Source of the DNA: Smithella sp. UBA2180
Lineage (GTDB): Bacteria; Desulfobacterota; Syntrophia; Syntrophales; Smithellaceae
DNA length: 35,199 bases
Direction of reading: 5' to 3'
Assembly (NCBI GenBank): GCA_002327415.1
Contig: DCVU01000114.1
Span: forward strand, 1-35,199
Under the pieces are notes generated by a model, which saw only the letters and a list, made by a program, of their open reading frames with translations, ran no database searches and was not told the origin of the DNA. The stretch's first letter is position 1, and every line of letters begins with the position of its first letter. Position numbers and translations under genes: made by a program. Shown piece by piece: positions 2,218-20,567 of this stretch.

Positions 2218-4794
2218 ATGAAGTATGAACCACTAGTTATTGAAGAAAAATGGCAAAAAAAATGGAAGGCGGAGAAATCCTTCAAGGTTACCGAAGACCC
2301 GCGGAAGAAAAAATATTATCTGCTGGAGATGTTCCCTTATCCTTCCGGCAAAATTCATATCGGCCATGTGCGTAATTACACCATCGGCGATGTAGTCGCC
2401 CGTTATAAGCGCATGAAGGGTTTCAATGTTCTGCACCCGATCGGTTGGGATTCCTTCGGCATGCCTGCGGAAAATGCGGCCATCGAGCATCAGATTCATC
2501 CCGCGAAATGGACCAACGAAAATATCGAGCACATGAAAAAACAGCTCAAGCGTATGGGCTTCAGCTATGACTGGGACCGGGAAGTTTCCACCTGCGAGCC
2601 GAAATACTACCGCTGGGAACAACTCTTCTTCATCTGGATGTACGAAAAAGGTCTGGCCTACAAGAAACGCTCCACCGTTAATTTCTGCACCAAATGCGAC
2701 ACGGTTCTGGCCAACGAACAGGTGGAAGGCGGCCAATGCTGGCGCTGCGGTACGGAAGTGCAGGAGAAAGTACTTGATCAGTGGTTTTTCAAAATCACTG
2801 CATACATCGAAGAACTTCTTGAGTATTGCGACAAACTGCCCGGCTGGCCGGAACGCGTCATGACGATGCAAAAAAACTGGATCGGGAAGAGCTACGGCTG
2901 TGAAGTTGATTTTCCGATGGCCGACGGAAACGGTGCCATCAAGGTATTCACCACGCGTCAGGACACGCTCTTCGGCGCGACATTCATGCTGGTGGCCGCG
3001 GAGCATCCGCTGGTTACGGAACTGACCAAAGGCAAAGCCATTGAGAAAAACGTTCAGGCGTTTGTTGAGAAAGTCAAAAAGCAGGACAAGTTGATGCGGA
3101 CTTCCGAGTATTACGAAAAGGAAGGCCTCTTTCTGGATTCCTACTGTCTCAATCCTCTCACCGGTTGGAAAATGCCGATCTTTGCGGCCAATTTTGTTCT
3201 GGCTGATTACGGCACCGGCTGCGTCATGGCCGTGCCGACGCACGATCAGCGCGATTTCGAATTTGCCAAAAAATTCAATCTGCCGCTGATAGTGGTCATT
3301 TCTCCGAAAGACAGAACGCTTGATCCGGTAACGATGACGGAAGCTTACGTGGATGAAGGAATTCTTGTCAACTCCGGTCAGTTCAACGGCATGGAAAACA
3401 CCAGGGTTCTGGAAGCCATCGCCGATTTTCTGGAAAAAGAAGGGAAGGGCAAACGCACCATTCAGTACCGTCTGCGCGATTGGGGTATCTCCCGCCAGCG
3501 ATACTGGGGCGCGCCGATTCCGATGATTAACTGCGCTACATGCGGCATCGTTCCTGTTGATGAAAAAGATCTGCCTGTCATACTGCCGGAAAATGTTAAA
3601 TTAAGCACCGAAGGCGGTTCACCTCTTGCGGCTCTGAAAGAATTCGTGGATACAACCTGCCCGAAGTGTGGTGGCAAGGCCGCTCGCGAGACGGACACGA
3701 TGGATACATTTGTAGAATCATCATGGTATTTCGATCGCTTCTGCTGTCCGGATTGCGACACCAAGCCCGGCCTTGACCGCAAGAAGCTCGATTACTGGAT
3801 GCCGGTTGATCAGTACATCGGCGGCATTGAACACGCCATTTTGCATCTGCTCTATTCGCGCTTTTACACTAAAGTCCTGCGCGATTTCGGCGTGATCGGC
3901 GTAGACGAGCCTTTTACCAATCTGCTGACGCAGGGCATGGTCTGCAAAGAAACGATGAAGTGCAAAGAGCACGGTTATCTTTACCCGGAGCAGGCGGCGG
4001 ATGACAAATGCCACATCTGCGGACAGGAAATAATTATCGGCAAGACCGAAAAAATGTCCAAGTCATTGAAGAACGTTATCGACCCTGACTATCTGATAAA
4101 AACATACGGCGCCGATACGGCGCGAATATTTTGTCTGTTTGCGGCGCCGCCGGAGAAGGATCTGGAATGGAGCGATCAAGGTGTGGAAGGCTCTTTCCGC
4201 TTTCTCAGTCGTCTGTGGCGCATCGTTGAAGAATATCTTGAAGACATAAAGAATGTTGAGCCTCTGTCCGGTGCTGTTGAACTGGAAGGTGAGTTAAAGG
4301 CGTTACGGCGCAAAACCCACCAGACTATCCGTAAAGTGACCGTTGATATCGAAGACCGTTTTCATTTCAACACGGCCATCAGCGCGGTAATGGAATTAGT
4401 AAATGCTGTCTATCAAACTAAACGTCCCGGCAGCGATGATAAAGTGGCGCTGTCTACCGTGAGAGAAGCGCTGGAGGCCGCCATCATTTTGCTGGTGCCG
4501 ATTGTGCCGCACATCACGGAAGAACTCTGGCAGTTGCTTGGTCATAAATATCTGGCTGCCAATGTTGTGTGGCCGGAATTTGATCCGGCGATTGCCAGTG
4601 AAGAAGAGATGACAATCGTCGTGCAGATTAACGGTAAACTGCGCAGCAGAATGACTGTGGCGGTGGATGAGGACCCGGAGAAAATCAAGGCAAACGCGCT
4701 GGCTGATGAAAAAATCAAGGCCATGACCGAGGGGACACAAATAAAGAAGGTTATTTACGTGCCGAAAAAACTGGTCAATATTGTTGTTGCATAG
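2218..4794 (+). CDS. leuS: Leucine--tRNA ligase
   Basis: The 858 aa protein carries the class I HIGH motif ([15 protein letters not shown]) and KMSKS (EKMSKSLKN). It also has the CP1 editing region ([12 protein letters not shown]) and the zinc-knuckle cysteines. Confidence 0.97.
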
Positions 4795-4834
4795 TAATAA
4801 AATAATGGTGAGGCCTTTGCATTATTATCGATTT

Positions 4835-4949
4835 GTCATTTCGACCGAAGGCGAAAGCCCGGCGTATGCTCGGGGAGAAATCTTATAAGGTAATGACATA
4901 AAATAAAGATTTCTCGTCGTTCCGGCCAGTCGGAACTCCTCGAAATAAC
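4835..4949. repeat. Inverted pair of REP-like units in the leuS-lptE spacer
   Basis: GTCATTTCGA...GAGAAATCT (4835-4883) faces AGATTTCTCG...TCGAAATAAC (4907-4949). The left unit contains GCGAAAGC at 4851-4858. Confidence 0.5.
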
Positions 4950-5724: not shown

Positions 5725-8127
5725 ATGACCCCTTTAGTTCGAAAATTCGGCCGATTCCTGCTTCTGGCAGTCAAGGATGAAAAAGAGGCACTAGACTTCT
5801 TTTTTTTCAAAAAACGTACCGTTCAAGAAATAAAGAACATTTCTTCATATCTGAGAAAATTATCAGGCAAATATTTGCTGGTAATGGATGCCGACAAGAG
5901 GATTATTATTGATAAATTGTCTTTGCGCGAATTCATTGGCGCCGCCGAAACAAATCAAGCCGGCATGATTTATTCAGATTTGATTTTACGTGACGGGAAT
6001 AAGCTGATTGAGCATCCCCTTATAGATTATCAGGCGGGCAGTATCCGCGACGATTTTAATTTCGGACATCTTTTTTTATTTTCTTGTGCGGCAATCAAAT
6101 CAAGTCTGCAGAAATACGGTTCTCTGCCTTCTGAAGGGGATACGGCTTTATACGACTTGCGCCTGAAAGTTTCCATTGACCATAAAATAATTCATGTTGC
6201 GGAATTTTTGTACATTGTATCCGCAGAGAATAAACAAAAGATAAGCAAACCCGGCGGGAAAGAGGAAGCGCATTTTGCTTACGTTGCTAAAGAAAATTTG
6301 ATTCGTCAAAAAAAGCTCGAAAAGATAGCAACAGATCACCTGAAGCGCATCGGAGCATATCTGCCTCCACGTACAAAAAGCGTGAATAAAGAACAGCATG
6401 ACTTGCAGTGGAACGCCAGCATCGTCATCCCCGTGCTCAATCGTAAAAAGACGATTGCCGCCGCGCTGACCAGTGCCCTGGAACAAAAAACCGATTTTCC
6501 ATTCAATATTATCGTAGTAGACAATCATTCCACGGACGGCACCACGGATATTCTGAAGAAATTGGCCGCTAGATATCCCCACGTCCATCATCTTATTCCG
6601 GTACGGCGCGATCTCGGCATCGGCGGCTGCTGGAATGAAGCAATCTATTCGCCGTACTGCGGACGTTACGTTATTCAACTCGATTCCGACGATCTTTACA
6701 GCTCGCCCCAAACGCTGCAAAAAATTGTGAATACTCTGCGCCGAGGGCTATACGCAATGGTTGTCGGCTCTTACACTATTGTTAATGAGAACCTTGAAAA
6801 GATTCCACCGGGTCTTATTAACCACAAAGAATGGACGCAGGCTAATGGACATAATAATCTATTGCGTGTCAACGGCATGGGTGCTCCCCGGGCATTTGAT
6901 TTATCCACCATCCGCCGGGTTGGCTTCCCCAATGTCAGTTACGGCGAGGATTACGCTGTAGCTTTGAGAATTACCCGTGAATATAAAGTCGGCAGAATAT
7001 ACGAAAATTTGTACTGGTGCCGCCGCTGGAAGGGTAACACGGATGCCGGACTTTCCATTGAAAAGAAAAACCGCAACGATTTTTATAAGGATACGCTGCG
7101 TACCACGGAAATTGGGGCCAGAAAATCAGCCGGTAAAGAAGAACCTTTTTTCAACAAGGAAAGAATTTTTGCCGAATTTGATGGAGGAAAAGATTTATCG
7201 TTGACCTTGCTTTGCCAAAGCCTTTATGATTCGCAAAAGAAAAGCTGGCCACGACTTGCCGATGCCTGCCGTGACTTAAATGCCGTTAATAATAGAAAGT
7301 TATCAGGGAAATATAAAGCTTATCTGCAATACAATTCCGCCCGCGCTATAAGCAGCGGAGCCGCGGTTGATGCAGAGTCAATTAAGAAAAGACCTTGCTT
7401 TTTATGTCATGAAAATCTTCCAGTGGAACAGAAAGGAATTCTATACAGAAACCAATATTTAATTCTTTGTAATCCGGCGCCGATTTTTAAAAATCATTTT
7501 ACAATAGTTGCACTACGGCATGATCCGCAGGAAATTGCTACATCGATAAATGGTCTTTTAGATTTAGGCGCCGATTTATCCGGTTATGCTGTTTTTTATA
7601 ACGGGCCGGCCTGCGGCGCTTCCGCTCCCGATCATCTGCATTTTCAGGCGATTCCGAAAAACAGCCTTCCTTTTTTCCTGGAATTTAAAAAGCTGTTGCC
7701 TGTTAAAAATAAGCTTTCTGTTCGATACAGCCGGTGGAAAGATTTTGATCGTTCTGTTATTTTGCTGGAGTCGCAAAGCACTGATGAGTTAACAAAACAA
7801 TTTCTTGATTTGTATAGAGTGATGCAAAGGATACTTAAGACAAATAAAGAACCATTGGTTAATGTCCTTTGCGATTATTCAGGTAATCGCTGGCAGTTGG
7901 CTGTCTTCCTGCGTCAGAAACACCGTCCGAATGCCTATTTTGCGAAAGGCAAAGATAGAATATTTATTTCTCCTGGCGCCGTTGATATGGCAGGATTTGT
8001 AATCACGCCGCTTCTGGATAATTACAATCATCTGGATTATAATGCCATTCGCGAAATTTACCGGGAAGTATCACTACCGGAGAATGTGATGAATTCAATA
8101 ATTAAAGAAATTGTAAAGGGAAATTGA
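5725..8127 (+). CDS. Multidomain protein: N-terminal unknown or degenerate region, family-2 glycosyltransferase, and a C-terminal HIT/GalT-like nucleotidyl-transferase/phosphorylase domain (DUF4922-like)
   Basis: The GT2 core is [14 protein letters not shown]...[12 protein letters not shown]...QLDSDD...GEDY. The C-terminal part is CFLC...[17 protein letters not shown]...APDHLHFQA, with the H-x-H-x-Q motif at nt 7633-7647. The start at 5725 is uncertain because of a weak RBS and a repeat immediately upstream. Confidence 0.7.
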
Positions 8128-8687: not shown

Positions 8688-9419
8688 TTATTTCGGCCGG
8701 GCGACGATGATGCCCGTGAATTTTTTATTGGATTTTAAATAGGCAACGAGATTTTTTTTGGAAATGACGACATTGCCTTCTTTGCTGGTAGCATGTAGCA
8801 GATGCAGACTTTTCCCCTGCCATATGGCAAATCCCAGGTGTGCAACGTCCAGTCCTTCCTGGTTTGTGGTAAAGGCAAGGATATCGCCATTATATATTTT
8901 TGATCTTTGCGTGGTTACTTTATCTTTGTCAATTACAGAGAAAGTTTTGCGGGAAAGTTTCTTTTCTATCGCTGACATTCTGGCAAGTTGCGCTTTATCT
9001 TTGAGGGGCGTGTATAACTCTTGATGAGCAGTAATAAAATTAATTTTATTTTGTTGAGGTTTGCCGCCAAGACGACTAGACACGTCAGTTAAAATCCCCT
9101 TTTTTTCATTATCGCGCAACCAATCAGTGAAATAATGCAGGCGTGAGGAATAGTCATTCATCTTGCCCTGCCGATAACGGATTGATTTTAAATTTTTTCT
9201 GAATTCTGTTCTTGAAATTTTTCCGGAAGAGGCGCAGCGGGCGAGGGCCAGAACCGTTTCCACAAAAGTTGTGCAATCAAAAACGGATACATTGACAATC
9301 AGTTTTTCTTTGCCACGATTTTCAATCGTTCCTGTTTTGTAAGGCTTATTGATAAAAAAAAAGCCGATTTCTATTATCAGATTTCCGTAAGACAAATTGT
9401 CAAATTGTTTCCCTCTCAT
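8688..9419 (-). CDS. DUF1460 / N-acetylmuramoyl-L-alanine amidase-like protein
   Basis: The 243 aa protein has LIVNVSVFDCTTFVETVLALAR, RYRQGKMNDYSSRLHYFTDWL, GDILAFTT...LDVAHLGFA and GIIVARP, matching my memory of the DUF1460 family. It is convergent with the M15 gene with a 3-nt gap. Confidence 0.7.
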   Translation of the reverse strand: MRGKQFDNLSYGNLIIEIGFFFINKPYKTGTIENRGKEKLIVNVSVFDCTTFVETVLALARCASSGKISRTEFRKNLKSIRYRQGKMNDYSSRLHYFTDWLRDNEKKGILTDVSSRLGGKPQQNKINFITAHQELYTPLKDKAQLARMSAIEKKLSRKTFSVIDKDKVTTQRSKIYNGDILAFTTNQEGLDVAHLGFAIWQGKSLHLLHATSKEGNVVISKKNLVAYLKSNKKFTGIIVARPK

Positions 9420-9502
9420 GGTAATAAGCTTTTCCTTTACTGATTTCTAAATGATTATTCGGAACAAAGCAAATATTAAGATGAAATTTTTTTTAACAAA
9501 TT

Positions 9503-9545
9503 ATAAAAAAGAAAACGGTCAGCAGGGAAGCTGACCGTTTTCTTA
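9503..9545 (-). terminator. Rho-independent terminator, probably for rpsT, with a bidirectional hairpin
   Basis: A perfect 12-bp stem AAAACGGTCAGC (9512-9523) / GCTGACCGTTTT (9530-9541) encloses a 6-nt loop. On the minus strand it is followed by TTTTCTTTTTTAT. Confidence 0.7.
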
Positions 9546-9555
9546 TAAATTATTA

Positions 9556-9587
9556 TTGATCCCGCGTCGCTACGCTCCTGGGATCAA
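9556..9587. repeat. REP-like hairpin in the rpsT 3' region
   Basis: TTGATCCC (9556-9563) pairs with GGGATCAA (9580-9587) around a GCGTCGCTACGCTCCT loop. Further degenerate units follow up to about 9705. Confidence 0.45.
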
Positions 9588-9710
9588 TTCCATTTGCGCT
9601 TCAAATTTCGTTTCACTCATTTTACCACGGCGCTGAACGTCTGATATAGTTCCACTTGCGTTTCGAGCTGCACTACGCTTGCTCTCAACGAGTGTCACTA
9701 TCAGCAAATG

Positions 9711-9974
9711 TCATTGAACAGCGTTGACTTTTTTAGTCAGTCTGGAAACTTTGCGTGAAGCATTTTTCTTATGAATTAAGCCTTTACTGGCTGCTTTATT
9801 CAATGCGGGGATAGCAGTTTTAAGCGCATTAATAGATTTTTCTTTATCCTTACTGTTTACATTTTCAATTACTGATTTAATCTTTGTTTTTAGTGCGGAC
9901 TTGGCGGCGATATTGTGCGCGCGGTTTTTTTTGTTCTGCCGATCACGTTTTTCTGCTGATTTATGTGTTGCCAA
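9711..9974 (-). CDS. rpsT: 30S ribosomal protein S20
   Basis: The sequence (M)ATHKSAEKRDRQNKKNRAHNIAAKSALKTKIK... is typical of S20. AGGAGG (9986-9981) abuts the ATG at 9980 but lies 6 nt from the TTG at 9974, so TTG is the likelier start. The ORF track gives 9980. Confidence 0.9.
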   Translation of the reverse strand: MATHKSAEKRDRQNKKNRAHNIAAKSALKTKIKSVIENVNSKDKEKSINALKTAIPALNKAASKGLIHKKNASRKVSRLTKKVNAVQ

Positions 9975-10191
9975 AAGCATCCTCCTGAACTAAATTTTTT
10001 TAGAAAAGTTTTGTTAAATATTACCTTACTGCGTTTGTAATGTTTGAGTTTCCTTAAATAGGGTTTGTTGATTAGCCTAATTATTGGGGACTGTCAAGCA
10101 CAAACTGGATTATTCCCCCACCGTATCTCATTGTTTTTTATAGGAAAGTATAAAATTGCTTCAAAAGTTTTTAAAAAACACTTAAATTTTC

Positions 10192-10219
10192 TTGACATAA
10201 TGTTTTTTCTTTATATAAA
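10192..10219 (+). promoter_or_regulatory. Sigma70-like promoter (TTGACA-N16-TATAAA) with no intact gene downstream
   Basis: TTGACA lies at 10192-10197 and TATAAA at 10214-10219. Downstream lies only the GGDEF remnant and then the 3' end of the convergent pyrG. Confidence 0.35.
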
Positions 10220-10257
10220 CAGACCATCTGTATACTTCCAGAGAACATAAGTTTCAT

Positions 10258-12064
<1,807 letters not shown>

Positions 12065-12132
12065 TCAATACTTTCCACATATTCATGACTAAAAAAGATC
12101 AAATGCCTCGGACACAAGTTTGATAATAAAAT

Positions 12133-15100
12133 TTAATTATCTGTAATGACCAATTGTTTAATGCGCCCGGCCAGAGTTTCCACCGGTTCACTGAACAAAT
12201 CAGCGATCGGGAATTTTTCCAAATAACCGTCATCCCAGTTAATATTATATTCGTTGACCAGATTGCGGATGTCGTTGTAGCGGTAACCCAAGACGCCCTT
12301 CTTTTCGCCTGCGGGCAGAAATTCATTATAGTCTACATGGAGTAAAACGAGATTGCTGACAGATTCATTTTCTCCTAATATAGGCAAAATTACGATTGCC
12401 GCTCCGTCCGCCTTGCCCTTGCCGATATAAACGTGACCGGTACTGACAATTGTCCTTTTCGTTCCCATAAGCATTGTGGAAGTTTCCGCGCGCGATTTCA
12501 TATCTTTGGCCACTCCGCCTTTTTTTCGGATGGTAATGGTTGAACCTTCGGCGGGATTGCCCTGTGCATCGAGGTTATTAATATCATAAATGGTGTATCC
12601 TCGCACGCCGGAAATGGCAGGTTGGATTCTGCTTACGGTCATGACGTTTCTGTAGGTCATATCTTTGGCGGCAATTTTCAGTTCTTCCAGAAGATCGAAA
12701 ATGATTCCTTTGAGTTCCTTTTCTTTGCGGCTTGTACCGACTGTAACCGTTTTAGCCTGATGACGTATTGCGTCTATAGGTCTGGTCAATTCATCAATTG
12801 CCCGGTCAAGTGTTATATCCAGAAGATCAAGAGGCGAGGCAAAATCTTCGTCAGTCTTAAATTCATGGCGGAAATCTCCCAGCGGTAATTTGCCAGCGGC
12901 ATATTTCGCCAAAAGCACGACATCCGAAATTGTCCGTACGCCCAGCAGATTGAATGCCCCATTATTACGATGATGATTGAAAGATTGATAAAACTTATTA
13001 ATTATCTGGCGCAAGTGAACATCGGCAATTCTTTCGTAAAGCGAATAATTTTTTTTCGTTTGTTCAGCCATAGCCAAATTCAGGCTGTTTCTGAATTCTT
13101 TAAAAATAAGCGCTTCTTTATTAATACCGCAAGCGGCATAATAGCCCCACAAATGCCCCGCCATAGTATTGAGAATCACTGGCAGCGGCATGGGTGCCAC
13201 CGGAAGGGAAATTACGGCATCGGCAATCTTATCGAAGCGATTATCACCTTCATCGGCAAAAACAATAACCGCGGCCTTGTGCGCTTTGAATATGGCCACA
13301 TCCTTGGCGATATCTTCCGCGACTGCCCGAGGATTACCGGCGGCACAAACCAGAATTAAAGGTTCGGCTGACAAATCAATATGTTTTTTGTTTTCCACTA
13401 CATCGGAAGAAATAGTTTTATAGCAAAGTTCACTGAGTTTGATTCTAATTTCATCGGCCGCCGCTTTGTTTGGCCCGCTGCCCACTATCGCCCAGAATTT
13501 CTTCGCGGGAGCTTCTTTCACGGAGGTGGCAATTTGATCCCTTTTGACAAAAACCCTCTCCATCAGTTGCGGCGCGCCTTCCAGATTACGCAATTCCGCC
13601 ATGATATAATCATCTCTGCGGGCGGCTAATAGTTGGGCAAAGAATAGGGCCAAAATATGACCCGCGATAACCTGGGAATAAAAGGCCTTGGTGGAAGCAA
13701 CCGACATTTCAATATCGCGTCCGTCGCTGGTGTAAAATACTCCGTGCGATTTTGTAGTGATATCCGATTGTCTCCGATTGACGATGGAAATGATGAAAGC
13801 GCCGCGCTCTGCCGCCATGGCCACGGCGCGATTTGTATCAGTTGTTGTTCCGGACTGGGTAATGGGAATCACAAGGGAATCGGATAAATCATCCTTTAAG
13901 AAAAACCCGCTTAATTCGGAAGCAACTTTGCACATTATATTAATGTTCTTGTTTTTTAAATAACGCTCCAGGGCGTCAGCCACCGCCGCACCGGCTACAG
14001 CCGCCGTTCCATGTCCGATAACTATTATATTTTTGATAGCGCCGTTTTGAAGTCTTAAACGAATGGAGGCAGGAACAATATCTTCACCTAAATTAAAAAT
14101 GACCTGCGGCAAAGAATTATCCTTTACGGTCAGACGATATTTACCCCGCAGGGTTCTTTTAATCGAAATGGCGGATTCGGAAATTTCTTTGAGGAAAAAA
14201 TGAGGATAATCGCCGCGATCAATATCGCGCGTCGTAATTTCCGCCTTCTGCAAATCAATATCTTTTAAACTAATTTTGGTGCCATCGTAATAGCAACCAC
14301 TTGCTCCTTCCAGTCCTCCCGATGAGGCTTGATCCAAGACAAATATTTGTCCAGCTGCCCTGCTTTCATTATTGGTGGCTGTTTCACCATTCATTTTGAT
14401 GAAATGAGGCATCACTTCCACTAGCCCGTATAGTTCCGAAGAAAACATGTATTGATCAGAACTGATCCCGATGTAAATGGACTGGCCGCTGCCTTTGAGC
14501 GCTAAAAACATCTTGCCCGGTTCCAGATCACTGGTCATGGCAATTGCGTGTGAACCTTCGAAATCATTCACAGTCAGGCGAAACGATTCAGTGAGGTTTT
14601 GACCGGCTTTCAAATATTTCTCAATTTGCAGGGGAATAATTTTCGTATCCGTTGTGAGCTCCGGGGAAATCATTTCCGCCGGAAGCTCTGCGCGCAGAGC
14701 CTGGTAATTATCGATATCGCCGTTTAATACAACATTAATATGTGCGGCGGATTTGGGATAAAAAGGAAAGTACGAATTTTTCTGATCAAGTTTATAATTA
14801 TTGACGGGATGACAATTTTCTTCCGTAATCGAACCGACGGAAGCCCAGCGCGTATGGGTCAGCGCCGTTTCATAAAGCGTATCCAGTGCGGCAAAACACG
14901 GGAGGATTTGGTCTTTCTTAATTATCTGCCTGAGATCACCGACATTGCGTCCCAGTTCACCCACAATAGAAAAAGTTTTATAGGTAAAAGTCACTGTCGT
15001 TTTTTTTGCGGTGCCGGCATTTACATTTGCTGCAATCAGGATGGCGCCATTAACAAGGTCTTTCTCTTCAGCTCTCGTCAAATAATCTTCGTATAAGCCT

Positions 15101-15864
15101 TTTTCTTTCAGTTTAAGCAAAATGTTTTCCATGTCTTTTTCTTTTTCCAGAGTAAAGACAATTTGCAGTCCCGCAGAATCTCTGCCCCGGACTTCCAAAC
15201 GATCCAGTGCATTGAGCAACAAATTAATTTGCCGGTATTTTTTAAAGGACGCCGGTTTGAGTTCGGATATTTTTTTTGCTCCGGAAAGATCACAAATCTT
15301 CGGGAAATTAGCCAGGATATCTTTTTCTAAAATCCATTGGATATCTTTAAACAGAATAATCCGGCTGTTGATAATTTCCAGATCGGTGGAAGTAAATCTG
15401 GCGGCATTATCTTCCAGGATATTTTCTTCTTCCGCCAGAAATAATTTCATTTTTTCAACTAAACTGAGAAGCTTTTTGGATCTTTCAGCCTTGAAGAAAA
15501 GAAATTCTTGTTTACTTTCCTGCTTGAACTCCAATGTGGTTTTTTCCATGGAGTTGAGCGTTTCGAGTCCACCTAAGTATGCTTCCGCTATAATCTTTCC
15601 AGTCAAGGCATTTTTCAAACCAAAACCTTTGATCTTTTTCCACAATGCCGCCATATCAAAATCTTCGGTTAAGTCTGCAGATTTTTTATCGGTATGGAGA
15701 GTCATTAATCCGGCAAAACCGCAGTTAAGTTGAGAAGTCAAAACCGGAAAAAAAATTATTGCCGGAACGGAAACATTTGCCGGATGTTTTCCTATAAATA
15801 TTTGACAGACCGCAAGAAACCGGCCCATATTTTTTATGGTATTGAGCATTCGCGCAATAAACAT
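12133..15864 (-). CDS. Giant GlmS-like glutamine amidotransferase: a class II Ntn domain with a large insert, two SIS domains, and an unknown C-terminal extension
   Basis: The motifs run CGFAGL (Cys codon 15723-15721) ... about 180 aa insert ... RLEVRGRDSAGL ... HTRWASVG..NCHP ... NGDIDNY ... TDTKII. SIS 1 is GHGTAAVAG...ITQSGTTTDT...VASTKAF and SIS 2 is VGSGPNKAAADEIRIKLSE. The ORF is open to 16065, but codons 1-67 run through a REP-like element. The ATG at 15864 has AGGAG 10 nt upstream. TTG at 15741 is another candidate start. Confidence 0.8.
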   Translation of the reverse strand: MFIARMLNTIKNMGRFLAVCQIFIGKHPANVSVPAIIFFPVLTSQLNCGFAGLMTLHTDKKSADLTEDFDMAALWKKIKGFGLKNALTGKIIAEAYLGGLETLNSMEKTTLEFKQESKQEFLFFKAERSKKLLSLVEKMKLFLAEEENILEDNAARFTSTDLEIINSRIILFKDIQWILEKDILANFPKICDLSGAKKISELKPASFKKYRQINLLLNALDRLEVRGRDSAGLQIVFTLEKEKDMENILLKLKEKGLYEDYLTRAEEKDLVNGAILIAANVNAGTAKKTTVTFTYKTFSIVGELGRNVGDLRQIIKKDQILPCFAALDTLYETALTHTRWASVGSITEENCHPVNNYKLDQKNSYFPFYPKSAAHINVVLNGDIDNYQALRAELPAEMISPELTTDTKIIPLQIEKYLKAGQNLTESFRLTVNDFEGSHAIAMTSDLEPGKMFLALKGSGQSIYIGISSDQYMFSSELYGLVEVMPHFIKMNGETATNNESRAAGQIFVLDQASSGGLEGASGCYYDGTKISLKDIDLQKAEITTRDIDRGDYPHFFLKEISESAISIKRTLRGKYRLTVKDNSLPQVIFNLGEDIVPASIRLRLQNGAIKNIIVIGHGTAAVAGAAVADALERYLKNKNINIMCKVASELSGFFLKDDLSDSLVIPITQSGTTTDTNRAVAMAAERGAFIISIVNRRQSDITTKSHGVFYTSDGRDIEMSVASTKAFYSQVIAGHILALFFAQLLAARRDDYIMAELRNLEGAPQLMERVFVKRDQIATSVKEAPAKKFWAIVGSGPNKAAADEIRIKLSELCYKTISSDVVENKKHIDLSAEPLILVCAAGNPRAVAEDIAKDVAIFKAHKAAVIVFADEGDNRFDKIADAVISLPVAPMPLPVILNTMAGHLWGYYAACGINKEALIFKEFRNSLNLAMAEQTKKNYSLYERIADVHLRQIINKFYQSFNHHRNNGAFNLLGVRTISDVVLLAKYAAGKLPLGDFRHEFKTDEDFASPLDLLDITLDRAIDELTRPIDAIRHQAKTVTVGTSRKEKELKGIIFDLLEELKIAAKDMTYRNVMTVSRIQPAISGVRGYTIYDINNLDAQGNPAEGSTITIRKKGGVAKDMKSRAETSTMLMGTKRTIVSTGHVYIGKGKADGAAIVILPILGENESVSNLVLLHVDYNEFLPAGEKKGVLGYRYNDIRNLVNEYNINWDDGYLEKFPIADLFSEPVETLAGRIKQLVITDN

Positions 15865-15879
15865 TATTGTGAAACTCCT

Positions 15880-15905
15880 ATTCCGAAAGCGAAGCGCAGC
15901 GGAAT
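15880..15905. repeat. REP-like hairpin with a GCGAAGCGC core
   Basis: The arms ATTCCG (15880-15885) and CGGAAT (15900-15905) flank AAAGCGAAGCGCAG. More repeat-like sequence extends to about 16060. Confidence 0.5.
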
Positions 15906-16061
15906 TGGTAAGTTGAACAATCCCGCGGAGCGGAGGGTAATGAGACCCAAGCTTCAGCAACAAAGTGCACTGAAGCTCGCAGGTCGAATTATACCGCATA
16001 AGCAGGTATTTAATACACCGCAGCGAGCTCGCGAATCTGTTTCCAAAGCTTGCTTTGGGGT

Positions 16062-17354
16062 TCATACCCGTGATTTTTCTTTCCGCCGCGAAGCGTCAGG
16101 GTTATTATTTATACATTCAGTTATAATGTTTTTAGTAATACCTCTTAACCAGTCCGTACCTTCCTTGGTTTGTGCAGGAGTTAATAATTGTATTGATTCC
16201 AGATAAGAGTTGCCTTTGTTGGAAAGGCGCCGCATTTTTTTTACAAACGAATCTCTTTTCTTCAGCCCAATCTTTTCTTCGCTGTTACCGGAAAGATATT
16301 CTTCCATTCGGGGCCAATCCTGCAAAAACTGTTTCTGAGCACGCGACACGCTGACTGGATATATTATTTCCATTTTTTTTGTGACTACTTCCATAGAAGT
16401 TTCTATGCTTTGTGCAAACAGGCGCAACTGCTTGACCCTTTCTGCAAGGGCTTCATCAAGAACACTGCACGCTCCGGAATAAAGGAGATCGCCATACATT
16501 TCTTGCATAAAAAACTCGCGACGTACGTGATGATACCACTGCCTCAAGGCCGATAAATTAGCCACGTACTCTATGTTATGTTTAACTTTTCGAGTAATGT
16601 CACCGCCGGAGGCACCGGCAGCAGAATCTTTCTTCTTTTCCAGAGAAGAAAGTGATGTCCAATGTATACCCTCTGTTTTAAAATCCTGTCGGCAAATAAC
16701 ACCTGCTGGAATCACCGTTCCATAATCAATTTGTACCGGTCCCACAATGCCGCCCTGGCCGCCTAGGAAAATCGGCGGTTCCCTAAGCATTACGCCGCGC
16801 GGCACATCGCCGATTAATGAAGGAGTCGCTTTATTCTGCCGTGGAGTATAATTAAAATGAATGTAGGAACTACCCACTTCACTGTGATTCTTTCGACTCG
16901 TTCCACCAGCCATCAGGCAATCGCAAAAATTAATCAGACTTCCCAATTGTACGAAAGGAAAGAGGATTGTTTGCTTTAAACCTACACAATGGTTTCCGCC
17001 TGCTTCTTCTTCCAAAAGGCAGCCGGAACGAACCTGTGCGTTGCTGCCCATTGTTGCTTTATTCAAAAAAACCGAATTGGTAAAGTATCCACCCCTGAGT
17101 TCAACTGCATTGCCCAGTTGACAATTAATTAGAGTAACAGGCGCTTCGAATCCCAGTTTTACTTCTGGAGAGATTAATGTGTTTTCGCCGTAAATCCTTG
17201 CCGCGCCATAAATTATTGAAGAACCGGCGATCCTTTCCGGATTTACTTCATCACCGATTTCCACAGAAAAAGGGGCCGTCATCCGAACCCCTTTTTTTAA
17301 GAGACAAATTATCTTTGGAGATAAGGTTACAGTTTTCTTAATGGTTCTAGTCAT
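16062..17354 (-). CDS. Left-handed beta-helix protein related to the GlmU acetyltransferase domain, plus a helical C-terminal domain
   Basis: Hexapeptide-like periodicity runs through residues 40-230. HFNYTPRQNKATPSLIGDV...FLGGQGGIVGPVQIDYGTVIPAGVICRQD parallels the GlmU pattern NYDG..K..T.IGD..FIGS...LVAPV.IG....AGS. The roughly 200 aa C-terminal part is not recognised. Confidence 0.55.
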   Translation of the reverse strand: MTRTIKKTVTLSPKIICLLKKGVRMTAPFSVEIGDEVNPERIAGSSIIYGAARIYGENTLISPEVKLGFEAPVTLINCQLGNAVELRGGYFTNSVFLNKATMGSNAQVRSGCLLEEEAGGNHCVGLKQTILFPFVQLGSLINFCDCLMAGGTSRKNHSEVGSSYIHFNYTPRQNKATPSLIGDVPRGVMLREPPIFLGGQGGIVGPVQIDYGTVIPAGVICRQDFKTEGIHWTSLSSLEKKKDSAAGASGGDITRKVKHNIEYVANLSALRQWYHHVRREFFMQEMYGDLLYSGACSVLDEALAERVKQLRLFAQSIETSMEVVTKKMEIIYPVSVSRAQKQFLQDWPRMEEYLSGNSEEKIGLKKRDSFVKKMRRLSNKGNSYLESIQLLTPAQTKEGTDWLRGITKNIITECINNNPDASRRKEKSRV

Positions 17355-17371
17355 AAAATTTTTTTAAACGG

Positions 17372-17680
17372 CTATTTATTATTTTTCCCACAGCTAATAC
17401 CCAGCTTAGCCATTTTATCGGTAAATGTGTTGCGGTTAATGCCTAAAAAAACTGCAGCCGAACTCTTTACGCCATTTGACCGGCGCAAAGCAATTTTAAA
17501 TAAACCTTTTTCCACCATACTCATAACTTCTTCGTAAAGTTTGCTTTTGCGATCACCGGAAGAAGATAGCACCGTAGCAATATCTTCCAGGTTTTTTTCC
17601 ATTATTTCTTCAACAGCCACATAAGGGGTTGTCTTAACATTCATAACAATTTCTGACTTATTATGCTTTTTCGATCGCAT
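17372..17680 (-). CDS. Small Fis-family helix-turn-helix DNA-binding protein
   Basis: The C-terminal sequence NGVKSSAAVFLGINRNTFTDKMAKLGI matches the Fis-type HTH (compare [26 protein letters not shown] in E. coli Fis, recalled from memory). Confidence 0.65.
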   Translation of the reverse strand: MRSKKHNKSEIVMNVKTTPYVAVEEIMEKNLEDIATVLSSSGDRKSKLYEEVMSMVEKGLFKIALRRSNGVKSSAAVFLGINRNTFTDKMAKLGISCGKNNK

Positions 17681-17756
17681 TTTTTGAAGCTTACTCCTTC
17701 CTGGTAATTTACTAAGAAAGTAAAAATGTAATTAAAAAGAATGATTAATTCCAAAG

Positions 17757-18272
17757 CTAGAATGATAATAATTTTAAAATTATAAAGGCAGTACTGATTA
17801 AAACACCGAACCAGCACATCACAATCAAAGAACGTTGTTCCACAGGATTTTCCAGATAATTCTTAACTTCTATTTCGACTTTCTCATTGTCTACCTTATC
17901 CACAAGAGAACGAATAAGTAAAGCATGGTTTTCTAATAAATTGGAAAAAAAATAAAATCCCTTAGTCGTTGTTAATATAAAATAAATTTTATTACGCAGG
18001 ATAACAACTCCTAATTGTGTAATCTCTGCCCAAGTAAATTCTTTTATACGAAAAAACTTCTCTATTTTTAAGCCTTCGTTAGTTACAATAATTTTTCTTT
18101 TTGTTGCTTCAACAGCAACAAATAAGGTAATGGCGAAAGAAACTGCTAGAATGATTTTCTCCAACATTTGACCTTTAAATAAACTGATTAGAAACAATAA
18201 GAAGAGAAGAACAACGACAGTGATAAAAGGTATGAGGAAAGTCCTTTTAATTTTAAAAATACTTTGTGTCAT
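17757..18272 (-). CDS. Hypothetical membrane protein: two N-terminal TM helices, a small soluble PH-like module and a C-terminal TM helix
   Basis: The 171 aa protein has hydrophobic stretches at residues 12-33, 38-56 and 148-168. The gene is strongly AT-rich. No family was recognised. Confidence 0.5.
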   Translation of the reverse strand: MTQSIFKIKRTFLIPFITVVVLLFLLFLISLFKGQMLEKIILAVSFAITLFVAVEATKRKIIVTNEGLKIEKFFRIKEFTWAEITQLGVVILRNKIYFILTTTKGFYFFSNLLENHALLIRSLVDKVDNEKVEIEVKNYLENPVEQRSLIVMCWFGVLISTAFIILKLLSF

Positions 18273-18352
18273 TTATTAGTTTCCTGATTTAATTTGATTG
18301 ATTAATAAAACATGCAAATATTACTTTTCCGAATGGTTTTAATTGTTTCTCA

Positions 18353-18829
18353 CTAGTCACGAATAAAAGTGCCGCTTTTACCGCCACTTTTTTCTAAAAG
18401 CATGATTTCTCCGATAACTATTTTCTTATTTACAGCCTTACACATATCATAAATAGTTAAAGCGGCAATGCTCACGGCTGTTAGCGCTTCCATTTCCACA
18501 CCGGTTTTCCCTGCTATTTGCACTTGAGCTTCTATTACAATTTGCGAGTTTTTATGATCAATATTTAGATCTACGTCAATTCCCGTTAATTGCAGCGGAT
18601 GGCAGAGAGGAATGAGTTCTCCCGTTTTCTTTGCAGCCATAATGCCTGCAATTTTTGCCGTTGTCAAAACATTCCCTTTGGCAATTTGACCTTTTTCTAT
18701 TAATTTTAGAGTTTGAGAATCCATTTTGACAATTCCCCGGGCTTTCGCCTTGCGAAAAGTCTCCACCTTAGCTGTAACATCCACCATTTGGACATGGCCT
18801 TCATTATTTACATGAGATAATTTTTTCAT
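18353..18829 (-). CDS. moaC: Cyclic pyranopterin monophosphate synthase MoaC
   Basis: The 158 aa protein has LSHVNNEGHVQMVDVTAKVETFRKAKARG, KGNVLTTAKIAGIMAAKKT..LIPLCHPL and TGVEMEALTA, all typical of MoaC. Confidence 0.93.
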   Translation of the reverse strand: MKKLSHVNNEGHVQMVDVTAKVETFRKAKARGIVKMDSQTLKLIEKGQIAKGNVLTTAKIAGIMAAKKTGELIPLCHPLQLTGIDVDLNIDHKNSQIVIEAQVQIAGKTGVEMEALTAVSIAALTIYDMCKAVNKKIVIGEIMLLEKSGGKSGTFIRD

Positions 18830-18977
18830 ATCAGTTATTAACTTTGGAATTTATTGTTGAATCAATTGATTAAATGGACATTAACATAGGCCAATTAATG
18901 AGTCAAGAAACGTAAATATTTTTTTCAGGTAATTTTTTAGATTCGTCCGGTTTAAGTATACTTTTACAGGAAATGTC

Positions 18978-19006
18978 TTGATATATAAATTCCAATTAGC
19001 TAGTAT
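18978..19006 (+). promoter_or_regulatory. Candidate promoter for comM (TTGATA-N17-TAGTAT)
   Basis: TTGATA lies at 18978-18983 and TAGTAT at 19001-19006, 32 nt upstream of the ATG at 19038. Confidence 0.3.
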
Positions 19007-19037
19007 CTCAACAAATTTCATTTAAAGAAGGCGTGCG

Positions 19038-20567
19038 ATGTTCGTTAAAGTAATCAGCATGAGCGTCATTGGCATGGAGTCCTATCCGGTATATGTGGAA
19101 GTGGACACATCACAGGGTCTGCCTCAATTTGCCACGGTCGGTCTGCCTGATGCTTCGGTCAAGGAAAGCAGAGACCGGATCAAGGCCGCCATCAAAAATT
19201 CCGGTTATCGTTTCCCCCGCAGTCATGTAACCGTCAACTTAGCTCCCGCAGATGTTAAAAAAGAAGGGACGGGTTTTGACCTTCCCATTGCTGTGGGCAT
19301 TCTGGCCGCGGAAGAATTAATTAAAGAAGCCGCTTTAAAGGGTTGTTTTTTTATTGGAGAACTGTCTCTCGACGGCAGCATCAAAGGCGTAAGCGGTGTC
19401 TTGCCCGCTACTTTTAAAGCAAAAGAAATGGGCATCAAATCGGTTTTTGTTCCCGAAGATAATGCCGCAGAAGCTGCTATGGTGGAAGGGATTAACGTCT
19501 ATCCGGTGAAAACTCTGCCGGATGTTGTGGAATTTTTAGCCGGCCGGAGTAACATCGAACCTCTTTGTTTGGATATAAATAAAATTTTTCAAAAAACACG
19601 TGAATATGACGTCGATTTCAATGAAATAAAAGGTCAGAAACAAGCAATGAGAGCGCTGGAAATTGCGGCGGCAGGCGGCCATAATGTATTAATGATCGGT
19701 CCGCCCGGTTCCGGAAAAAGTATGCTGGCAAAAAGACTTCCGACTATTTTACCCGATCTTTCCTTTGATGAGGCTATCGAAGTAACCAAAGTATTCTCCA
19801 TAGCCGGCTCTTTGAATAAAAAAGAAATGTTAATCGCTGTGCGGCCTTTTCGTTCGCCGCATCACACGATATCCGATGCCGGTCTTGTTGGCGGCGGCCA
19901 GACACCTCGTCCGGGAGAAATAAGCCTTGCCCATATGGGGGTTCTTTTTTTAGATGAACTTCCTGAGTTCAAGAAAAACGCGCTGGAAGCCCTCCGACAG
20001 CCGCTGGAAGATGGCACCATAACAATTACACGTTCTTTAGTAACGGCTTCTTTTCCCGCGAAATTTATGCTGGTGGCGGCAATGAATCCCTGCCCCTGCG
20101 GTTATTTTGGCGACCGTGTGCATACATGCCGATGCAGTCCGCAGCAGATTCGTCAGTATCAATCCAAAATATCAGGACCGTTATTGGATCGAATAGATTT
20201 ACATATTGAGGTGCCTTCAGTTAAATACCGGGCTCTGTCCGGTAAAGAATTGGGAGAATCTTCAGCAACAATTAGAGATCGCGTAAACAAAGCACGTGAT
20301 CTGCAAAAAAAGCGTTTTGGCCATAAAGGCATTCTTTGTAATGCCCAAATGACGGAAAAACAAATACGGAATTTTTGTCCTATAAGCGAAGAATCGCATA
20401 AACTGATAGAAATGGCCATTGAAAAACTGGGATTAAGCGCCAGGGCGGTAAACCGGATATTAAAATTATCCCGGACCATCGCTGATCTGGAAAACAAGGA
20501 AAATATTGAACCTGCTCATGTTGCCGAAGCAATTCAGTACCGAAGTCTTGATAGAAGTTTAATTTAG
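19038..20567 (+). CDS. comM: YifB/ComM-family Mg-chelatase-like AAA+ ATPase
   Basis: The 509 aa protein has an N-terminal Lon-protease-like domain (VEVD...[13 protein letters not shown]) and a Walker A motif (GPPGSGKSM). It also has LFLDELPEF, the zinc cluster CPCGY..C.C, and the C-terminal tail [10 protein letters not shown]. Confidence 0.93.

Follow-up and report, generated by a model that had tools for sequence, protein, structure and literature searches.

The locus and the start of the long GlmS-like gene

We analysed a 35,199-nt stretch of Smithella sp. UBA2180 (contig DCVU01000114.1; hereafter the window), which over the four genes described here is about 99% identical to Smithella sp. 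SCADC and D17, and focused on a gene for an exceptionally long GlmS-like protein, here called the giant. An initial annotation made from the letters alone had placed four genes in this region, and all four proved real and lie on the minus strand. The first encodes a 102-aa protein with a Fis-type helix-turn-helix (HTH) domain (17372-17680; Pfam HTH_8, 2.2e-10), and 17 nt separate its end from the gene of a 430-aa beta-helix protein (16062-17354; LbH in the gene orders below), taken from the open reading frame (ORF) list and without a Pfam family. The giant ORF follows (12133-15864, 1243 aa; Pfam GATase_6, GATase_7 and SIS), and pyrG, encoding CTP synthase (10409-12055; CTP_synth_N, 6.5e-126), is placed 77 nt downstream of its end. 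A Smithella sp. database fragment (P0064) showed 100% identity to the window.

The giant had been given a length of 1243-1310 aa. We assign its start to ATG 15864 (MFIARM...), which gives a predicted protein of 1243 aa from which all residue numbers below are counted, because about 110 full-length homologues at 63-96% identity measure 1230-1250 aa and because in the closest relatives (loci L003, L005 and L011) the stop codon of the beta-helix gene overlaps the giant ATG as TAATG (context AAAAATAATGTTT). Such a stop/start overlap is the classic arrangement of translational coupling, and the beta-helix and giant genes are predicted to be translationally coupled in these Smithella relatives. A structured repeat element of 209 nt (15865-16073, minus strand) lies at the junction of the two genes in the window strain, and L003, L005 and L011 carry no such element. 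By this comparison the repeat is evidently an insertion in the window strain, outside the ancestral module. It alters the final few codons of the beta-helix gene, and the 1310-aa frame is spurious because the repeat sits at the gene junction; the shorter length stands and the longer one is an artefact. A start at TTG 15741, also considered before, is unlikely and was ruled out because the 47-aa leader that it would remove is conserved at the protein level across Desulfobacterota.

An Rfam scan of 9000-19200 identified no glmS ribozyme and no leader RNA. Its sole match, a sub-threshold IS009 (15696-15809, plus strand) antisense within the coding sequence of the giant leader and first insert, was taken as chance (22.8 bits vs a gathering cutoff of 117; E = 0.051). 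Promoter and terminator scans of the locus were no better than shuffled sequence, and co-transcription is therefore not established.

The giant keeps the catalytic residues of GlmS

We judged the conservation of the giant in two alignments, one of 112 close members and the other of 63 divergent members with identities no higher than about 50%. The reference was an E. coli GlmS sequence confirmed for residues 67-588 via a computed alignment. The nucleophile strand CGFAGLMT (residues 48-55; 15700-15723, minus strand), in which Cys48 corresponds to GlmS Cys1, was invariant in the 112 close homologues, and its Cys-Gly was kept in 60 of the 63 divergent ones. What remains of this glutaminase domain, which is of class II (Ntn) (residues 213-545; 14230-15228, minus strand; Pfam GATase_6 and GATase_7), aligned with E. 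coli GlmS 14-39 and 67-240, and the isomerase domain with its two SIS subdomains (residues 546-915; 13120-14229, minus strand; Pfam SIS, 6.3e-15) aligned with approximately 240-588.

In both alignments the glutamine-site motifs RGRDSAG (Arg26; the RGRDSAGL strand of the giant spans residues 225-232) and HTRWAS (Arg73 and Trp74) were near-invariant, as were the glutaminase motifs LNGDIDN (Asn98 and Gly99), TDTK (Asp123) and CHP. The glutaminase motifs are present, as the initial annotation had stated, and aligned with E. coli GlmS, and the glutamine site of the giant differs from that enzyme at Thr76, which is Ser, and His77, which is Val. The isomerase domain showed the same degree of conservation for (S/T)QSGTTTDT, which corresponds to the E. 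coli Ser347-Thr352 loop and reads TQSGTTTDT in the window protein, for VASTKAF, identical in E. coli GlmS (Val399-Lys403 region), for KLSELCY (equivalents of Lys485 and Glu488) and for KKH (equivalent of His504). Eukaryotic GFAT/GFPT (6r4e and related entries) were the second-best PDB sequence matches (1e-19). Taken together, the alignments show that the giant keeps essentially the complete GlmS catalytic apparatus. The earlier suggestion that the domain is not catalytic, or is a sensor, is not supported, given that the catalytic and fructose-6-phosphate (Fru-6-P) positions are near-invariant at or below about 50% identity and that most members start with MCG.

Additions to the GlmS core

Comparison of the homologues also showed that four family-specific additions are conserved across phyla, and all elements of the domain map from the nucleophile strand to the C-terminal domain recurred at similar length in 63 of 63 divergent members.

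The first 47 residues (15724-15864, minus strand) form an N-terminal leader, a probable propeptide, whose motif (hydrophobic-x-hydrophobic-G-x-x-P ... three hydrophobic-F-P-x7-CG) is kept in about 72 Desulfobacterota-type loci. Essentially all Desulfobacterota-type members, including Smithella, have a leader, 17-71 aa long. The remark that the nucleophile Cys is not N-terminal therefore holds for the window clade, in which Cys48 lies behind the conserved leader. Most of the divergent members, from several non-Desulfobacterota phyla, start with MCG(I/L/F) without a leader, as is canonical for Ntn amidotransferases, and apart from the leader the two forms are collinear. Since members with a leader keep the glutaminase residues invariant, the leader is most simply read as a probable propeptide, cleaved so that Cys48 becomes N-terminal. 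PurF and GltB are likewise class-II glutaminases in which a leader before the nucleophile Cys has to be removed, and the end of the giant leader, QLN followed by CGF, resembles the E. coli GltB junction, which we take to be N followed by CGF. The giant leader differs from these in its strongly conserved hydrophobic-FP motif and in its place on a GlmS-type enzyme, and we know of no propeptide described for GlmS-type enzymes. A link between the leader and the beta-helix partner was considered and rejected, as the partner was found in 42 leader loci and was missing from 30.

Insert 1 (residues 56-212; 15229-15699, minus strand), a predicted helical bundle, separates beta-strand 1 of the glutaminase domain from its helix 1. 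The AlphaFold model of its 157 aa was all helical (mean predicted local distance difference test score, pLDDT, 86.3; predicted template modelling score 0.79), and the insert was found in 63 of 63 divergent members at 118-177 aa. Its best Foldseek match (E = 0.48) was generic helical-bundle noise, and no match was identified in a PDB profile search or in Pfam (E up to 10). The initial annotation had described a helical insert splitting CGFAGL from RGRDSAGL; the insert and its helical nature are supported by the model, and its length is about 157 aa and not about 180 aa. A further expansion of about 60 aa separates RGRDSAG from HTRWAS.

The region behind the isomerase domain, about 310 aa, had been described as free of recognisable motifs. 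We found that it holds the canonical GlmS C-tail, flanked by insert 3 and by a domain of 197 aa; neither of these two parts gave a Pfam or PDB sequence match. Insert 3 (residues 916-1030, 115 aa; 12775-13119, minus strand), between the second SIS subdomain and the C-tail, was helical in the tail model (model residues 1-120, pLDDT about 76-89) and was present in 63 of 63 divergent members at 93-135 aa. The internal C-tail motif RPIDAIRHQAKTVTVG(T/I)SR (residues 1031-1046; 12727-12774, minus strand) was identified from the alignments. The window version, RPIDAIRHQAKTVTVGTSR, is the counterpart of E. coli LAKSVTVE, with Lys1038 as the equivalent of Lys603; the segment is exactly 16 aa in 63 of 63 members, and its R, P, D, H, Q, A, K, T, V, G, S and R are fully or almost fully conserved. 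Unlike the chain-end Lys603 tail of GlmS, AKTVTVG of the giant (residues 1037-1043) is internal, with about 200 residues after it. The C-tail was disordered in the model built without the isomerase domain, which fits a segment normally packed into that domain.

The C-terminal alpha/beta domain (residues 1047-1243, 197 aa; 12136-12726, minus strand), a putative ligand sensor, was modelled with a pLDDT of about 80-93 (80.7 for the tail model overall). In a Foldseek search of the PDB, sensor domains of the GAF, PAS, Cache and LOV types made up most of the top 40 matches. The Foldseek and profile checks on insert and tail that had been proposed identified no established domain and only a weak GAF/PAS likeness of the tail. 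A peroxiredoxin likeness in the PDB profile search was spurious (E about 0.4). The polar positions invariant across 18 diverse tails, which are a Tyr, a Ser-Arg, a Gly-x-Lys, an Asp and a Glu, would suit a ligand pocket.

The beta-helix partner and the Fis-type protein

The beta-helix protein consists of a left-handed beta-helix domain distantly related to the GlmU acetyltransferase domain (residues 12-237; 16644-17321, minus strand) and a C-terminal helical domain of about 190 aa (residues 238-430; 16065-16643, minus strand) that is kept in orthologues down to 45% identity and gave only spurious helical matches in Pfam and the PDB. No NTP_transferase (uridyltransferase) domain was detected by Pfam, and the chain begins at the beta-helix. 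A single-sequence PDB search reached only E = 0.28, whereas the best PDB matches of the family profile were all GlmU (2v0h, 1.2e-4) and hhalign aligned residues 13-233 with GlmU 242-439 at 92% probability (E 6e-7). The NCBIfam glmU models matched at 1e-8 to 1e-12, far under their cutoffs. The claim that this beta-helix is closely patterned on GlmU was therefore overstated; the homology stands by profile methods, and the catalytic triad is lost.

With the GlmU acetyltransferase domain (PDB 2v0h, 3fww and 4fce) the protein shares a beta-helix alignment of about 200 residues, in which R109, K127, N168 and K175 align with the glucosamine-1-phosphate (GlcN-1-P)-binding Arg333, Lys351, Asn386 and approximately Lys392 (K175 is one position off Lys392). 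These four were invariant in 12 orthologues, and Tyr169, which matches GlmU Tyr387, was Phe in 7 of the 12. The catalytic His363, Glu349 and Ser405 of GlmU are replaced by Ser139, Gly125 and Gly199, invariant in the same 12 orthologues (down to 45% identity). An alternative HMMER register places Phe143 opposite His363, and no register yields a His. The protein further differs from GlmU in its TSRKNH loop, NFCDC motif and helical domain. We counted about 21 invariant polar, Cys and His positions, among them Cys78, His122, Cys144, Asp145, His157 (in the family-specific TSRKNH loop) and His166, and Cys146 was kept in 10 of the 12. His122, His157 and His166, 35 and 9 residues apart on successive helix turns, might together bind a metal, much as in gamma-class carbonic anhydrases. 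These patterns suggest a protein derived from GlmU whose active-site region is strongly constrained yet different. One possibility is an acyltransferase in which the base has moved or a metal site is used, the other a ligand-binding partner. N-acylation, which the initial annotation had proposed, is doubtful because the triad His363/Glu349/Ser405 is not conserved.

The small HTH_8 protein scored 32 bits vs 99 with the Fis equivalog PRK00430 and 45 vs 122 with PRK01905, and by these scores it is a Fis-type HTH protein and not a Fis orthologue. Only in Syntrophales is its gene a conserved upstream neighbour of the module, where moaC and a DUF6585-like gene invariably accompany it, and a role as dedicated regulator is, from this pattern, indistinguishable from that of a conserved neighbour.

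Distribution of the long form

Clustering at 50% identity gave 431 clusters that contain the giant tail region, which in nearly all cases is C-terminal in proteins of 1130-1280 aa. A motif scan with one genome per species identified the long-form architecture in at least 587 species genomes, and a profile of the MCG type matched no fewer than 4196 proteins at E <= 1e-50. Among the sources named are Smithella, Syntrophus, Desulfobacterales and Desulfomonilia on the Desulfobacterota side, and Acidobacteriota, Planctomycetota, Vulcanimicrobiota/Xenobia, Armatimonadota, Acidimicrobiales/Actinomycetes and Riflebacteria elsewhere. The members come from uncultured or poorly studied organisms, except for a metagenome-assembled genome labelled Syntrophus aciditrophicus (L041). 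The family is annotated by NCBI as 'SIS domain-containing protein' and by JGI as GlmS. Our literature searches retrieved no description of a long GlmS and none on glmS in Smithella or Syntrophus, and the architecture thus appears to be new, while the kind of enzyme itself is known. A tblastn search with E. coli GlmS against about 1.6 Mb of fetched loci returned giants only, at 30% identity or less, and is uninformative on the rest of the genomes.

Gene neighbourhoods link the giant to glmM and to glutamine metabolism

In Syntrophales, the gene order is comM, moaC, DUF6585-like, Fis-HTH, [LbH], GIANT, [NrpR-like, gdh], [LbH], [glmM], pyrG, in which square brackets mark genes that vary. In the majority of Syntrophales loci, and in many further loci too, pyrG comes after the module. 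We found GIANT-LbH-glmM in L040, L043, L051, L057, L070 and L074, GIANT-glmM-LbH in the Acidobacteriota locus L069, and GIANT-glmM in L077. The neighbouring mutase is a true GlmM, with TIGR01455 scores of 566-594 bits in this linkage group and 482-594 bits overall against a cutoff of 447.55, and a true glmM lies beside the giant, the LbH gene or both in Syntrophales, Acidobacteriota and Actinobacteria. This linkage in several phyla is a stronger tie to hexosamine synthesis than the initial annotation had seen.

On three independent actinobacterial contigs (L097, L100 and L102) the order is rplM-rpsI-glmM-(0-2 small genes)-GIANT-acpS-yjeF-CBS-alr-tsaE-tsaB-rimI-tsaD(-groES-groEL). In M. tuberculosis rplM and rpsI are Rv3443c and Rv3442c, alr is Rv3423c and tsaD-groES-groEL1 are Rv3419c-Rv3417c, and on this order the comparison points toward the actinobacterial giant occupying the glmS position. 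The M. tuberculosis glmS and glmM are Rv3436c and Rv3441c, respectively (PMC9366312). The actinobacterial GlmM exceeded the TIGR01455 cutoff in both contigs tested, L097 and L100. On another actinobacterial contig, where the giant lies outside the glmM block, a 210-aa hexapeptide-repeat protein is encoded 0.8 kb downstream (L101:13285-13917).

Desulfomonilia-type loci carry the giant between carA and carB, in some cases along with LbH and glmM; the order is carA-GIANT-carB in L064, L065, L066, L067 and L071 and carA-GIANT-LbH-glmM-...-carB in L070 and L074. A split glutamate synthase and glnA precede the giant there, and pyrG follows it. In other loci the giant stands before hisH-hisF. The Desulfomonilia-type block consists almost wholly of glutamine-using or glutamine-making enzymes. 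We also considered whether the giant is the glutaminase subunit of the adjacent split glutamate synthase, and dropped the idea because L058 encodes a separate class-II glutaminase subunit of 364 aa. In one Smithellaceae subclade, genes for an NrpR homologue and glutamate dehydrogenase are inserted between the giant and LbH genes (L001:13911-16347; also L027, L029, L031, L035-L037 and L044). NrpR is a nitrogen repressor of archaea, and the protein found here (NRD1_2, 2.6e-82, with a winged-helix domain) is its homologue in bacteria.

The giant as a probable long-form GlmS

The pathway looks canonical because the catalytic residues are near-invariant, a true glmM is adjacent and the actinobacterial giant lies in a glmS-like position. 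We favour, with moderate confidence, the reading that the giant is a long-form GlmS for the ordinary GlmS-GlmM-UDP-N-acetylglucosamine (UDP-GlcNAc) route and probably the housekeeping enzyme of its lineage. The initial annotation had proposed a dedicated amino-sugar module. It was right that no member is characterised and that a link to hexosamines exists, through glmM, but the non-canonical pathway that it envisaged does not fit GlmS residues that are near-invariant. The findings lean toward the case that it had itself named as a refutation, in that the giant may be the housekeeping glmS of its genome.

Several findings weigh against the housekeeping role. The giant has Ala in place of Ser303 and Thr in place of Glu351 of E. 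coli GlmS. The NCBIfam glmS models TIGR01135 and NF001484, which cover residues equivalent to 396-979 of the 1310-aa frame, gave 225.7 bits vs 418.05 and 251.4 bits vs 381, and the actinobacterial giant is likewise below the glmS equivalog thresholds. The phmmer match to E. coli GlmS reached just 3.6e-22, though this is the best solved relative. Such divergence of the core would be unusual for a housekeeping GlmS and is compatible with a paralogue of altered specificity. No glmM was found near the giant in the Vulcanimicrobiota, Planctomycetota and Armatimonadota loci inspected, and the argument from the actinobacterial glmS position leans partly on gene order beyond the two cited loci. The C-terminal domain resembles GAF and PAS domains weakly (E values of 1e-3 to 1e-2, probability 0.9-0.99, target TM 0.4-0.49), and it had no Pfam match in 18 diverse tails and no PDB sequence match. 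Finally, the leader is conserved more strongly than a disposable propeptide needs, and a role beyond blocking the active site is therefore suggested.

The low equivalog scores and the substituted Ser303 and Glu351 would be accommodated if the giant were a specialised paralogue, acting on another ketose phosphate or supplying glucosamine-6-phosphate (GlcN-6-P) to an envelope or secondary pathway, with the beta-helix protein as its N-acyltransferase, which is the dedicated module of the initial annotation. The Desulfobacterales loci, where the giant follows a penicillin-binding-protein (PBP)-like transpeptidase, a DegT/PseC-family sugar aminotransferase and an iron alcohol dehydrogenase (Fe-ADH), could be read in the same way, as could the active-site region of the beta-helix protein, strongly constrained and unlike that of GlmU. 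However, the other phosphate- and sugar-binding residues of GlmS are intact, and the adjacent mutase is a true GlmM equivalog rather than a specialised phosphoglucomutase or phosphomannomutase. Moreover, the actinobacterial giant sits among genes for ribosomal proteins, the cell wall and tRNA modification, the usual surroundings of glmS, and the beta-helix partner is absent near most members beyond Syntrophales and a few other lineages. We thus regard a specialised paralogue as rather improbable. We rate lower still the idea that the giant is a non-catalytic or ammonia-dependent sensor, in which an uncleaved leader blocks the nucleophile, the glutaminase domain only binds glutamine and the protein signals the state of nitrogen or hexosamine supply, perhaps in concert with its beta-helix and Fis-like neighbours. 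A Cys 47 residues from the start behind a highly conserved leader, the extra sensor-like and helical domains, and the nitrogen-assimilation setting, with an NrpR-like regulator and gdh adjacent in some lineages, would agree with it. Yet the catalytic residues of both active sites are under strong purifying selection across phyla, and pseudoenzymes normally lose such residues. Most members have the canonical MCG start and are collinear with the leader-bearing form, and propeptides ahead of the Cys are known for PurF and GltB, which also counts against a sensor.

For the beta-helix protein, we lean slightly toward a GlcN-1-P acyltransferase with His157 as a relocated base over a ligand-sensing partner. 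It is possible, though less likely, that the protein is instead a regulatory pseudo-GlmU that binds GlcN-1-P, UDP-GlcNAc or acetyl-CoA and modulates the giant through contacts of its helical domain with the helical insert of the giant, in functional analogy to GlmR/YvcK. The replacement of the catalytic trio by invariant Ser, Gly and Gly with the sugar-phosphate binders kept speaks for this, as do the translational coupling with the giant in Smithella relatives and the unexplained helical domains in both proteins. Control of GlmS by GlmR/YvcK in Bacillus, as reported (PMC6171935), is a precedent for a regulatory partner. On the other side, the roughly 21 invariant positions suit a catalytic or metal site at least equally, many giants without a nearby beta-helix gene retain insert 1, and an interaction between the giant and its partner is purely hypothetical.

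Proposed mechanism and comparison with known systems

As a long-form GlmS, the giant would aminate Fru-6-P with glutamine to yield GlcN-6-P. The Desulfobacterota leader would be cut off, probably by the enzyme itself in the manner of PurF and GltB, which would leave Cys48 at the N-terminus. Canonical GlmS has a free C-tail, which closes over the sugar, couples the active sites and helps to form the ammonia channel. The C-tail of the giant would instead be held at both ends, by helical insert 3 and by the GAF/PAS-like domain, and a ligand on this domain could govern closure of the tail and hence activity, which would place hexosamine entry under allosteric control. Such control, tied to nitrogen, fits the frequent position of the giant near carA/carB, glnA, split glutamate synthase, hisHF, pyrG, gdh and the NrpR-like gene. 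Helical insert 1 might be an oligomerisation or partner-binding surface, the beta-helix protein could still bind a hexosamine phosphate, and the Fis-like protein would be a co-transcribed small DNA-binding protein.

A bolder and, in our estimate, unlikely version is that the long-form GlmS is a self-contained checkpoint that has taken the place of canonical GlmS in parts of five or more phyla, with a docked, catalytically rewired pseudo-GlmU as a second sensor and leader processing as an irreversible activation step. The C-terminal domain would then sense a nitrogen or hexosamine signal, for example UDP-GlcNAc, GlcN-6-P, 2-oxoglutarate or glutamine, and move the C-tail on or off the sugar site, this movement would gate ammonia channelling, and the Syntrophales pseudo-GlmU would dock on the helical insert. 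If true, the checkpoint would add a third, purely protein-based control of GlmS beside the glmS ribozyme and GlmY/GlmZ.

With bacterial GlmS (E. coli; PDB 2j6h, 3ooj and 1jxa) the giant shares the Ntn glutaminase with its Cys, two SIS subdomains, the (L)AK(S/T)VTV tail with its Lys and the linkage to glmM. A glmU-derived gene lies directly upstream of the giant, and E. coli has the operon order glmU-glmS. The giant differs in being twice as long. A 157-aa bundle follows its beta-strand 1, its glutaminase domain is expanded by about 60 aa, a 115-aa insert precedes the C-tail, the C-tail is internal and followed by a sensor-like domain of 197 aa, and in the window clade a 47-aa leader comes first. 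Eukaryotic GFAT/GFPT is likewise a GlmS-type enzyme lengthened by regulatory insertions and under allosteric control at the protein level, but its insertion totals about 70-80 aa, lies elsewhere in the glutaminase domain and goes with a free C-tail and no GAF/PAS-like domain. GlmR (YvcK), the glmS ribozyme and GlmY/GlmZ serve the same purpose of tuning hexosamine entry to metabolite status, but they act via a separate protein or RNA, whereas the putative sensor of the giant is part of the enzyme chain.

UDP-GlcNAc synthesis, and through it that of peptidoglycan and lipopolysaccharide, begins with GlmS as its committed and tightly regulated step, and the enzyme is an antibiotic target. If the giant is the housekeeping enzyme, a fused allosteric module would be used by Syntrophales, many Desulfobacterota, Acidimicrobiia, Vulcanimicrobiota, Planctomycetota and Armatimonadota, and annotation pipelines would be giving the family a mere generic name ('SIS domain-containing protein') or listing it as plain GlmS. 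The giant would also be a natural system for studying how C-tail motion couples the two GlmS active sites, and its place among carA/carB, glnA, glutamate synthase, hisHF and pyrG suggests coordinated control of glutamine spending.

A dispersed structured repeat and other features

The junction repeat of the window strain has a predicted RNA fold of -75 kcal/mol (z = -4.3) and no Rfam family. With blastn we identified it as one of a dispersed, strongly structured family in Smithellaceae loci, with a copy at the same junction in L022 (L022:6344-6530). Further related copies lie at L009:3840-4011 and 4791-4943, L005:14788-14839 and 17342-17402, L014:4873-4953, L076:4612-4687, L015:8207-8346 and L010:8201-8340. 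An exact 38-mer from the repeat had 0 matches in species-representative genomes, and its relatives surfaced only with blastn at lower stringency. In two giants, P0027 (L015) and P0058, a repeat copy lies in-frame within the ORF, an arrangement reminiscent of the Rickettsia palindromic elements. The 46 aa that it contributes (CETQISKTKCIEICKSNNPATSGGYDAQLLGAELGSMACSGVHTRE) follow residue 369 and fall in a variable glutaminase-domain loop. In P0019 and P0042, a copy at the junction was mis-called as an N-terminal extension.

Upstream of the studied region, the window encodes an 800-aa protein on the plus strand (5725-8127) that combines a family-2 glycosyltransferase domain with DUF4922 (5.6e-53).

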